A stretch of 47,034 bases of DNA from contig PETS01000105.1 of assembly GCA_002781265.1 (NCBI GenBank), positions 1 to 47,034 of the forward strand. The letters run 5' to 3'. This stretch comes from Candidatus Falkowbacteria bacterium CG02_land_8_20_14_3_00_36_14. Lineage in GTDB: Bacteria; Patescibacteriota; Patescibacteriia; Patescibacteriales; UM-FILTER-36-11. Below the pieces are notes generated by a model. The model searched no databases, was not told where the DNA came from, and saw only the letters and a list, made by a program, of their open reading frames with translations. Both the position numbers and the translations under genes were made by a program. This document shows positions 12,023 to 16,123 of the stretch, piece after piece; the stretch's first letter is position 1, and every line of letters begins with the position of its first letter.

Positions 12023-13024
12023 ATGTCTAACATCAATTGTTTAGAAAATAAAACAGTGTTGATTACCGGTGGAACCGGTTCTTTCGGTAAGAATTTTATT
12101 AAGCATCTGCTTATTAATTCTAAGGCTAAAAAAATTATTGTTTTTAGTCGCGATGAATTAAAGCAATTTAATATGGCAAGGGAGCTTAACGACGAAAGAT
12201 TGAGATTTTTTATCGGAGATGTTCGCGATAAAGATAGATTAATGCGTGCTTTTTACGGAGTTGATATCGTAATTCATGCCGCGGCCTTAAAACAGGTGCC
12301 TACCATTGAGTATAATCCTTTTGAAGCCGTAAAAACTAATATTTTAGGAAGCCAGAATGTTATAGACGCCGCGATTGATCAGGGCGTAGAAAAAGTATTG
12401 TTGATTTCAACAGACAAAGCGGCGCAACCTATTAATCTTTACGGTTCGACTAAACTATGCGCGGAAAAATTATTTATCAGCGGAAACGCTTACTCGGGCG
12501 GAAAAACCAGATTTAGCTGCGTGCGCTATGGAAATGTGATTGGCAGCCGGGGAAGCATTGTGGAAACCTTGGTTAATAAGCCGAAGGGCGAAAAAGTGCT
12601 CATTACCGACGAAAGAATGACCAGATTTTGGCTTATACTTGAGCAGAGCTTTGTACTCGTTTTATTCGCCTTGGATAATATGGTAGGCGGGGAAATTTTT
12701 ATTCCTAAAGTTCCGAGCATGAAAATTATTGATATAATAGACATCATTACTCCTGATTCCATAAGAGAGATTATTGGCATAAGACCGGGAGAAAAAGTGC
12801 ACGAAATGCTTTTAACCCGCGAAGAATCAAGGCACGCGGTTGCGCTTGATAAATATTTTGTCATTATTCCCGAGCATAAAGAAATATTTAACATGGATAA
12901 TTTTAAAAAGTATACGGATAAAGGCGAAGGATTGCCCCAGGATTATTATTTTGCCAGCGATACAAATGAAAATTGGCTGTCGGATGACGACTTTAGAGAA
13001 ATTGTTGAAAATTTAAAAGTATAA
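12023..13024 (+). CDS. pseB: UDP-N-acetylglucosamine 4,6-dehydratase (inverting), PseB/FlaA1 type
   Basis: ITGGTGSFGK, KKIIVFSRDELKQ, RFFIGDVRD, IHAAALKQVP..EYNP, STDKAA.PINLYGSTKLCAEK and VRYGNVIGSRGS are collinear with PseB/FlaA1. Confidence 0.9.
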   Translation: MSNINCLENKTVLITGGTGSFGKNFIKHLLINSKAKKIIVFSRDELKQFNMARELNDERLRFFIGDVRDKDRLMRAFYGVDIVIHAAALKQVPTIEYNPFEAVKTNILGSQNVIDAAIDQGVEKVLLISTDKAAQPINLYGSTKLCAEKLFISGNAYSGGKTRFSCVRYGNVIGSRGSIVETLVNKPKGEKVLITDERMTRFWLILEQSFVLVLFALDNMVGGEIFIPKVPSMKIIDIIDIITPDSIREIIGIRPGEKVHEMLLTREESRHAVALDKYFVIIPEHKEIFNMDNFKKYTDKGEGLPQDYYFASDTNENWLSDDDFREIVENLKV

Positions 13025-14158: not shown

Positions 14159-14773
14159 TTATTCACCGAGTTGCTTCTTAGAAATATAAAGAAGCATGCC
14201 GGGCACTCCGTTGAATGGACCGGGGCAGGCTTGGCCGTATACTGAAACCAACACTGAACCGTCACTTAAGGAGGTGATGCCGTTTCCGAATACATCAGGA
14301 ACAGCAAGGTTTTGATAAAGATAAATTCCGTGTTTTTTTGTAGAACGAAAATTTGTGACAGTCAGAAGACCATAATTTGTTAAGGTAATACCATAAGTGA
14401 ATGGCTCAATTCTATCGCTTGAGTTATAAAATAATGTTTTTTCGTCCGCAACGGAATAGATGGTTGATTGCCATTCATTTACATCGGCTGATGATTTAAT
14501 CGTGAATATTCTGTTTGTTTTATGTTCCCAAAGTGCGGAATGAATCATTGCCATATCATCGCCATCTGGTGGGAGTAGTATTTTGTCCGTAAGCGACCAT
14601 TTGTCTCCAGTATTTTGCGGCGGGGATAGGACAAAAAAGCTTCTTTCCGGATCACCATTTCTAGGGATCCATAATGTTCCGTTGGGTCCGAAGTTCACGG
14701 TTTGCGTGCGGTTGATATCGCTGTCCCTTAAAACATCCGGAAACAACCGTACCGACTGAATTCCATGTTTCAC
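14159..14773 (-). CDS. Hypothetical protein, downstream part of a frame interrupted by an in-frame TGA; GC-rich relative to neighbours
   Basis: Same frame as ORF 14783-15022, separated only by TGA (14780-14782) and two codons. No Shine-Dalgarno before the GTG at 14773. No domain recognised. Confidence 0.5.
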   Translation of the reverse strand: MKHGIQSVRLFPDVLRDSDINRTQTVNFGPNGTLWIPRNGDPERSFFVLSPPQNTGDKWSLTDKILLPPDGDDMAMIHSALWEHKTNRIFTIKSSADVNEWQSTIYSVADEKTLFYNSSDRIEPFTYGITLTNYGLLTVTNFRSTKKHGIYLYQNLAVPDVFGNGITSLSDGSVLVSVYGQACPGPFNGVPGMLLYISKKQLGE

Positions 14774-14782
14774 CCCGCGAAT

Positions 14783-15022
14783 TCATTCAAAATCAAAGAA
14801 ATGAAGCCCGTCGGGAGTTATCTTGACTTTAGCCATGCAAATTGCCGGCGCATAGTAATCCGCGATAGCGATTAGGTTGTACCCATCTTTCGGAATACTC
14901 GCAATGCCAAGCGGCTGGAAACCGAGAAAAATCGGCTCATTTAATTTTTCCAGTGGAACAGTAATGCTTTTCTCCTGATTGGCGAAGCTTTTCGCCATGT
15001 TGGCTAAGTACTGTGAGTCCAT
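14783..15022 (-). CDS. Hypothetical protein, upstream part of the same interrupted frame
   Basis: Strong SD (aaggaggtaaaat) before ATG 15022. The 79 codons end at TGA, and the frame continues into 14159-14773. Confidence 0.5.
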   Translation of the reverse strand: MDSQYLANMAKSFANQEKSITVPLEKLNEPIFLGFQPLGIASIPKDGYNLIAIADYYAPAICMAKVKITPDGLHFFDFE

Positions 15023-15121
15023 ATTTTACCTCCTTAATTAAAATGGTTATTGGTTTAGCGCTTAATTGCGCGTTTTGAAAAGGTCAAATCTAATAATTTA
15101 ATTTAGCATAAACAACGAAAT

Positions 15122-16123
15122 ATGTCAATAAAATTGGTATTTAAAGAAGAAAACGAAGAGCTGTTTTGGAAATATTGGAATGAAATGGCAAAAAAAGCGA
15201 GCTACAGATATTTCCCGACTAATTTAAAAACTTACAATTACGGCGGTAAAAACGACAAAAGTTTTGTTTACTTAGTGAATAATCAGCTGGCGGCTGGAGT
15301 ATTTTTGCCTATTGAAAAAATTGAAAAATTTTTTATTAATGCGCCGATTTTTAAATTTATGGCGGTCAGTAAAGAAATATTTAAAATAATTAATAAAATA
15401 GCGGTAGAAAATGGGATTAAAAAAATAATGTTTGAGATAGACCCATTGGAAAATTATAGTTATAATTATTTGCAGAAGTATGGTTATTTGGATGCGACCA
15501 TTTTAAGCTATGTAGTTGATTTAACGGTTGATGATTTACTGGCGACTTGCCGAAAAGGATGCCGTAACGACATAAAGTCCATTTTAAAGGATAAAAATTT
15601 TTCCGTATTTTTTATTGATAAAAATAATGCGGATTATAACATCCATAAGGAATACAGAGAACTGCATAAAAAATGCGCCGGCAAAGAAACGAGAGCCAAA
15701 AAAACATTTGACTGGCAGTTTGAAAGATTAAAGGAAGGAAAGGCGGTCTTATTCGGTTTAAAATATAAAAATAAAAATATCGCTTATTCGTATTTTGAAT
15801 TTAATAAGGAAAAGGGTGTTTATTATTCTTCCGCCGATGATCCAGATTACGATAGAATGCATATCTACCATATTTTGATTTATTCAGCCATGGAATATTT
15901 AAAGAAAAAAGGAGTCAAGTTTCTTGATATGGGCCAGCCGGCATCGCCCTCGCCGCAGTTTAATTATTACCCCGACAAAAAACAAATTAACATAGCTTTA
16001 TTTAAGAGGGGATTCGGCGGTGAATTTCGGCCTTTATTCAGGGGTATAAAATATTTTTCAGAAGAAGCATTTAAAAAAGATATTAAAGAGTTTATTGATA
16101 ATTATTTTCAAGCCATAGTATAA
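15122..16123 (+). CDS. FemAB-like / GNAT-fold acyl- or aminoacyl-transferase (tentative)
   Basis: CRKGCRNDIKSILKD and the C-terminal ALFKRGFGGEF resemble the R..IRKA and FK.GFGG signatures of FemAB-type transferases. Weak overall. Confidence 0.4.
   Translation: MSIKLVFKEENEELFWKYWNEMAKKASYRYFPTNLKTYNYGGKNDKSFVYLVNNQLAAGVFLPIEKIEKFFINAPIFKFMAVSKEIFKIINKIAVENGIKKIMFEIDPLENYSYNYLQKYGYLDATILSYVVDLTVDDLLATCRKGCRNDIKSILKDKNFSVFFIDKNNADYNIHKEYRELHKKCAGKETRAKKTFDWQFERLKEGKAVLFGLKYKNKNIAYSYFEFNKEKGVYYSSADDPDYDRMHIYHILIYSAMEYLKKKGVKFLDMGQPASPSPQFNYYPDKKQINIALFKRGFGGEFRPLFRGIKYFSEEAFKKDIKEFIDNYFQAIV

Follow-up and report, generated by a model that had tools for sequence, protein, structure and literature searches.

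On the minus strand of a surface-glycan locus, between a PseC-like gene and a FemAB-like gene, lies a reading frame that is broken by a single in-frame TGA. The window (the whole 47,034-nt stretch of DNA that we analysed) is contig C111 of a 1.10-Mb genome in 146 contigs, with 36% GC and 94.7% completeness. The original prediction proposed one gene with an internal UGA and left three explanations for it: a fresh pseudogene, a recoding event by readthrough or selenocysteine, or a gene acquired from a donor that reads UGA as sense. Which of these the locus supports, and whether any product of the frame could still function, are the questions addressed here.

One gene with a stop at codon 80

The frame runs on the minus strand from 15022 to 14159 and is made of 79 sense codons, the TGA, 207 further sense codons (206 had been claimed) and a TAA at 14161-14159. 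The whole disrupted gene (14159..15022, minus strand, 864 bp) counts 287 codon positions plus the TAA. The in-frame stop was rightly recognised but its position was given 3 nt off: the next codon, ATT, occupies 14780-14782 and the TGA is codon 80 (starting at 15022 - 237), at 14783..14785 on the minus strand (read as 14785-14783), with the altered base at 14783 (A on the minus strand). Apart from this TGA, the frame contains neither a frameshift nor a second stop, and TGG is the codon at the four further Trp positions of the gene. The predicted strong Shine-Dalgarno sequence ahead of 79 codons ended by TGA was confirmed as AAGGAGG (15029..15035, minus strand), with a 6-nt spacer before the ATG at 15022-15020. 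Further upstream, in the 99-bp divergent gap toward the FemAB-like gene, sits a promoter-like site (15100..15128, minus strand; TTGACA, a 17-nt spacer and TG-TAAATT, 10/12 consensus matches); the match is without statistical support, with 3 such sites in the 1.5-kb region vs 5.6 (sd 2.7) expected from shuffles.

With Trp put in at the stop, the joined translation (P0001) served as query against 5.8 billion protein clusters and recovered ~30 single-protein homologs of 271-304 aa, with 39-71% identity and covering 96-100% of the joined query; the few that are named belong to Magasanikbacteria and Falkowbacteria MAGs, and no full-length protein above 71% identity was present among the 5.8 billion clusters. 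These full-length homologs align across the TGA with E-values down to 1e-133, so the continuity of the frame is not due to chance, and the proposal of one gene with an internal UGA (put at ~288 codons) holds at ~287. A profile search of 1.84 billion representatives extended the family to 129 clusters at 50% identity, nearly all of 270-320 aa. As predicted from the sequence, no domain is recognisable: Pfam and NCBIfam gave no match for the joined protein or for either piece, and Pfam on 31 family members returned only scattered single weak matches (Tachylectin, Reg_prop, NHL).

The residue that homologs carry at the stop column, which the original prediction had singled out as a check, is Trp in 28 of the 30 close homologs and His in the other two, inside a conserved x-W-I/V-R-G motif whose Arg (R82) is invariant among 31 aligned sequences. 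Of 108 full-length members of the wider family, 68 have W in the column and most of the remainder A, F, R or Y; Cys is not one of the common residues. In the closest relatives with an intact gene (L003, 71% identity; L004, 70%), the gene converges on a 369-aa DegT/PseC gene, just as it does in the window, and reads GAATGGAT at the site where the window reads GAATGAAT (GAA TGG AT vs GAA TGA AT). Because both of these genes read TGG there, the change is a single G>A transition that turned an ancestral TGG (Trp80) into TGA. TGG also stands at codon 80 in all other family members for which the DNA was read at this place.

To judge what a truncated product would retain, we consider the predicted fold. 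An AlphaFold model from a 31-sequence alignment (pLDDT 89.3, pTM 0.89) is all-beta, with a predicted helix at residues 3-11 and codon 80 inside a predicted strand, 72-81; the N-terminus does not resemble a signal peptide. The model points to an uncharacterised beta-propeller of roughly six blades. The N-terminal remnant of 79 codons (14783..15022, minus strand) would cover ~1.5 of these blades, and it is the sole product expected if termination is normal.

Gene callers annotate a second ORF of 204 codons from a GTG (14159..14773, minus strand), and this arrangement raises the possibility of a functional split protein, in which ribosomes terminate at the UGA, re-initiate at the GTG 6 nt downstream and make 79-aa and 204-aa pieces that assemble into the propeller. 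Short-range termination-reinitiation is known in bacteria, and the GTG (14773-14771, codon 84) lies three codons past the stop at a codon that is GTA, and thus no start codon, in the two nearest homologs (L003, L004). However, the GTG has only GCGGGG directly against it and no properly spaced Shine-Dalgarno sequence, in agreement with the original prediction. Both pieces would also lack codons 80-83 (W80, I81, R82 and G83), of which R82 is invariant and W80 nearly invariant in close homologs, the cut would fall inside a modelled beta-strand of the second blade, and no other family member is split at this point. We consider such a split protein very unlikely. The 204-codon ORF is probably not translated independently, and neither the 79-aa nor the GTG-initiated piece is likely to be functional, given the loss of 208 of the 287 residues and of the invariant R82 in any split product.

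Homologs that exist as two separate genes meeting at this point had been named as evidence that would overturn the single-gene reading. One protein looked like such a case, P0084, which has 203 aa and starts at the equivalent Val. Its DNA reads ...S-TGG-ATC-CGG-GGC-GTG... and its frame is open upstream to the contig end, so it is a truncation at a contig edge and not a split homolog. Three other short proteins were judged edge truncations from their residues, P0093 since it starts without a start codon, and P0128 and P0148 since they end well before the W column.

The TGA allele and its setting in the glycan locus

A TGA is one base away from TGG and the assembly is a MAG broken into 146 contigs, as would suit a single-base sequencing or assembly error, a concern that the original prediction had also raised. 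We fetched 10 independent contigs from different runs, assemblers and studies in at least 5 submissions (Logan SRR6240744; ENA ERZ17910757, ERZ272933xx, ERZ909569 and ERZ17986947); over 4-6.6 kb their identity to the window is 99.89-99.97%. All ten carry the TGA. In addition, the two split products (204 and 79 aa) appear in records for dozens of contigs in JGI, ENA, Logan and NCBI, the 79-aa one being called on 44 public contigs. The TGA is therefore real in the DNA and is no base-call or assembly error, an explanation to which we give practically no credence.

With ten contigs that are 99.9% identical, the TGA allele is that of a single near-clonal population, in which it is fixed and which has been sampled in many metagenomes of groundwater type. 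Among diverged relatives TGA at codon 80 is not conserved, being found only in this lineage. Across 6.6 kb we counted 10 variable sites, namely 8 substitutions (7 nonsynonymous and 1 synonymous, over several genes) and, in PseB, two insertions of 1 nt. Within the propeller gene a single SNP occurs, at 14230 (minus strand; GCC/ACC, Ala265/Thr), and variable sites are not enriched in this gene, as judged from 10 sites in 6.6 kb of a 99.9%-identical population.

The neighbourhood of the gene was examined with Pfam labels taken from the 99.9%-identical contigs. On one side stand an ABC exporter, the PseB-like gene (Polysacc_synt_2) and the PseC-like gene (DegT), and on the other the FemAB-like gene (Acetyltransf_6; 15122..16123), a Gfo/Idh/MocA oxidoreductase and a CTP_transf_3 cytidylyltransferase. 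The original prediction had seen in this setting a GC-rich insert on the opposite strand. Its first half is correct, for the gene has a GC content of 0.43 over 864 bp vs 0.28-0.31 in the immediate flanks and 0.34 in the window; but when the 635 long frames of the genome are ranked, it stands no higher than the 92nd percentile in GC and the 80th in GC3, richer than its neighbours and no outlier. Moreover, it is 0.10-0.21 GC-richer than the flanking glycan genes in every homolog locus examined (L003, L004, L015-L018), with GC3 up to 0.84 in L018. From this recurrence and from its percentile in its own genome we conclude that the contrast is a family-wide composition set against low-GC glycan genes, and not a recent insertion.

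Synteny leads to the same view of the insert. The gene keeps its place by PseC in the closest relatives, and in six homolog loci it lies on the opposite strand among DegT, Acetyltransf_6, GFO_IDH_MocA, CTP_transf_3, NeuB and Aminotran_3 genes. We then compared 19 homolog loci, which include 12 GTDB species genomes (Saccharibacteria, Magasanikbacteria, Falkowbacteria, Moraniibacteriota and one doubtful 'Gammaproteobacteria' MAG), using tblastn with the cluster proteins of the window. A PseB, PseC, NeuB or cytidylyltransferase homolog was found within 10 kb in 13 of them. Among the other six are three contigs shorter than 4 kb, of which two (L029, L038) have no cluster homolog and one (L020) has an ABC exporter homolog only. 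In three Falkowbacteria-type loci an ABC exporter homolog adjoins the gene and no other cluster homolog does, and one long locus, L034, gave no match to a cluster homolog at all. The gene is oriented opposite to the cluster in most of the 19 loci and on the same strand in four. We reject horizontal acquisition as an insert from synteny together with the genome-wide GC percentile.

Other differences were seen in the locus among the near-identical contigs. In five of the ten (L010-L014, positions 1-140), the sequence beyond ~15132 is replaced by the end of a repeat (...GGTAGCTTTGACTCTGCAACAGTACATTTA followed by TTGACAT...), which matches at 98-100% the ends of ~20 contigs of the same genome and internal stretches of C72 and C130 (22 matches on 21 contigs). 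The repeat has the look of an IS-like element present in many copies and polymorphic for its insertion at codon 4-5 of the FemAB-like gene, and it probably explains the fragmented assembly. The insertion point, at window positions 15132-15136, lies directly beside the -35 box of the promoter-like site of the propeller gene. Two public contigs, L011 and L008, carry different 1-nt insertions of A (at 12271 and 12390, the latter in an A5 run), each of which splits the PseB-like gene; these could be assembly errors or real variants in the population. Lesions of this kind at the population level would be in keeping with surface-sugar genes that are still being inactivated or varied in this population.

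Reading of UGA in this genome

We next considered whether the TGA could be recoded by design, either as selenocysteine or under a code that reads UGA as sense (table 4/25), be it the host's own or inherited from a donor. One in-frame TGA in a low-GC genome, in a gene somewhat GC-richer than its neighbours, is what invites this explanation. The genome nevertheless encodes RF2 (prfB, 481.7 bits vs a cut-off of 370), and TGA ends 61 of its 635 long frames (~10%), including four other genes in the window. TGA is not in excess at same-frame junctions between long segments (12/90 vs 9.6% expected), and on inspection the other TGA junctions proved to be separate genes (e.g. YebC/RuvC) or non-coding frames. 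ARAGORN recovered 25 tRNAs in the MAG; with it we found tRNA-Trp(CCA) only, and neither a tRNA with a UCA anticodon nor tRNA-Sec. The genome thus uses the standard genetic code. A donor that reads UGA as sense finds no backing either, given RF2, the regular use of TGA as a terminator, and TGG both at the remaining four Trp codons of the gene and at codon 80 in its relatives.

The prfB gene lies at C19:3096-4148 as an uninterrupted frame of 367 aa, with no internal stop reported. A +1 programmed frameshift site is common in bacterial prfB, and the gene of this genome appears to be without one.

The evidence on selenocysteine points the same way. The stop column is Trp/TGG in homologs and never Cys or Gly. 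When we searched the genome for the selenocysteine machinery, as had been suggested, SelD and SelB gave only paralogs below the cut-off (63.7 bits vs 125; 187 vs 242), an absence that is not absolute in a MAG of 94.7% completeness. The SECIS-like hairpin that had been suggested as a further check did not materialise, for the predicted fold of the 111 nt that surround and follow the stop is no more stable than that of shuffled sequences (MFE -23.6 vs a shuffle mean of -25.6, z=+0.60), and Rfam gave no match downstream of the TGA. Altogether, as far as sequence can show, designed recoding is already refuted, and we regard it as extremely improbable in any of its forms.

Across the stop, at window positions 14754-14786, two EcoRI sites (GAATTC) lie 22 nt apart and could form a 7-bp hairpin that contains the TGA (UGAAUUC with GAAUUCA). 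The equivalent pairing in the nearest homologs is TGGAT/ATCCA, and the TGG>TGA and ATC>ATT changes preserve pairing. We considered this hairpin as a readthrough signal and dismissed it, because its energy is not above that of shuffles and because the stop codon itself is part of it; it is probably a coincidence.

A different matter is whether the stop is leaky, i.e. whether tRNA-Trp(CCA) reads the UGA often enough to supply a tolerated and useful low dose of the full-length propeller. Reading by this tRNA would restore the ancestral residue, and the intact frame, Shine-Dalgarno sequence and promoter-like site, the fixation of the allele and the small share of TGA among stops (only ~10%) are compatible with it. 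The tRNA itself adds a further argument. The sole tRNA-Trp(CCA) of the genome (C21:2967-3038) has C9, a U11:A24 pair in the D-stem and a 5-bp anticodon stem, and in E. coli the A9C and G24A (Hirsh) variants of tRNA-Trp enable or raise UGA readthrough (PMC13092985). By analogy, UGA readthrough might here exceed the usual trace, as C9 and U11:A24 are native to this tRNA.

Several observations speak against a leaky stop, however. The genome encodes RF2 and regularly ends its genes with TGA. Of the 61 genuine TGA stops, 24 are followed by A and 24 by T, the two commonest bases at this place; the TGA at codon 80 is followed by A and so stands in one of the two contexts in which this genome ordinarily terminates, and no stimulatory structure accompanies it. 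The allele, moreover, is not conserved outside one 99.9%-identical lineage. As for the tRNA, a variant with a 4-bp anticodon stem has been shown to decode UGA efficiently (PMC13092985), but the stem is here a normal one of 5 bp with G27-C43 paired, and C9 and A24 stand in a different tRNA body (C9 with A12-U23), which makes the E. coli analogy only a lead. On balance, we hold a tolerated or functional leaky stop to be unlikely. The stronger version, in which the native C9 and U11:A24 tRNA-Trp(CCA) would read UGA as Trp appreciably and the gene would persist as a deliberately low-dosed full-length propeller, is in our view quite unlikely; if it were true, UGA termination would be leaky in general in those CPR bacteria that have such tRNAs.

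Fate of the gene and likeness to known systems

The explanation that accounts best for these observations is a fresh pseudogene created by a recent nonsense mutation, at most a hypomorph through trace readthrough as Trp, and we consider it very probable. Of the explanations first proposed it is the one with support, through the TGG ancestry of the codon, the standard code and the TGA in 10/10 contigs. In this mechanism, a G-to-A transition turned the conserved Trp80 TGG of a single-copy gene, encoding a cytoplasmic beta-propeller of ~287 aa, into TGA. Under the standard code with RF2, ribosomes would terminate at codon 80 and release a 79-residue fragment. Since this fragment would be unable to form a propeller, the gene would be inactivated. 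Rare near-cognate reading of the UGA by tRNA-Trp(CCA) would restore exactly the ancestral residue, which is why a weak hypomorph would be the most that is left. The allele is fixed in the near-clonal population, and a second disabling lesion has yet to accumulate. Both the loss of function and the trace of readthrough are what we infer from the gene and its relatives.

How recent could the mutation be? The window protein departs from the family at 2 of the 56 columns that are conserved at >=90%, which is typical of family members. Codon 176 (14495..14497, minus strand) is AAA (Lys) where 30/30 close homologs have Glu (GAA; E176K, G>A) and 89/108 members of the wider family have Glu; codon 224 (14351..14353, minus strand) is AAT (Asn) where 29/30 close homologs have Asp (GAT; D224N, G>A) and 83/108 of the wider family have Asp. 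The stop and these two changes are all three G>A, and the two residues replaced are near-invariant acidic ones in the close subfamily. In a FastTree phylogeny, the two closest relatives have terminal branches that the one of the window gene exceeds 1.4-1.8 times in length, and Tajima relative-rate tests against these two revealed no significant acceleration (p = 0.17-0.63). A frame that is intact apart from the TGA and this lack of significant rate acceleration argue that the mutation is recent. The intact Shine-Dalgarno sequence, promoter-like site and downstream frame, in an allele fixed in every contig sampled, give the look of a very recent pseudogene, and equally that of a tolerated leaky allele.

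For annotation, the locus should be entered as one pseudogene, instead of two hypothetical proteins. The case matters little for the recoding question: in a genome with the standard code, a point mutation of an ordinary kind has recently, in all likelihood, abolished the function of a gene. What it brings to light is a small unnamed propeller family, defined here by ~129 clusters at 50% identity, without a Pfam family and with a confident model. The family is restricted to Patescibacteria (CPR), where it usually lies in or next to nonulosonic-acid (pseudaminic/legionaminic-type) clusters, and it is patchy, being present in 2 of the 61 genomes of the same order. On account of its linkage to nonulosonic-acid biosynthesis clusters, the propeller is a candidate for an accessory role, as enzyme or factor, in the surface glycosylation of CPR bacteria.

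Comparison with structures of known function adds the fold class. A sequence-profile search of the PDB gave nothing significant, and Foldseek against the PDB returned generic beta-propellers only (probability ~1.0). The six-bladed ones among them, such as C. jejuni Cj1041c (22gv), paraoxonase-1 (4hho), virginiamycin B lyase (2z2n) and P. aeruginosa pseudaminidase (2w38), share the all-beta architecture and a similar size with the model, but at TM 0.33-0.54 and 9-14% identity this is a resemblance of fold class that allows no functional assignment. The pseudaminidase (TM 0.40, rank 31) drew attention as a hint at function, since the gene lies in a pse setting, but it was set aside because it scores no better than dozens of unrelated propellers.

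As to the stop itself, the locus resembles bacterial selenoprotein genes (UGA with SECIS, SelA/SelB/SelC/SelD) in having an in-frame UGA within an otherwise conserved ORF; it differs from them in the Trp column of its homologs and in that neither selenocysteine machinery nor a SECIS-like hairpin was found in the genome or around the stop. With near-cognate UGA decoding by tRNA-Trp(CCA) (PMC13092985) it shares the UGA stop, the ancestral Trp and the C9 and U11:A24 of the tRNA, whereas the canonical 5-bp anticodon stem, the presence of RF2 and the use of TGA as a regular stop set it apart. The closest likeness is to an ordinary nonsense-mutation pseudogene, with a single transition, intact full-length orthologs elsewhere, a standard code with RF2 and the rest of the frame intact. 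From that class it shows no mechanistic difference; it stands out by its uncharacterised family and by the fixation of the allele in a near-clonal CPR population that has been sampled widely.
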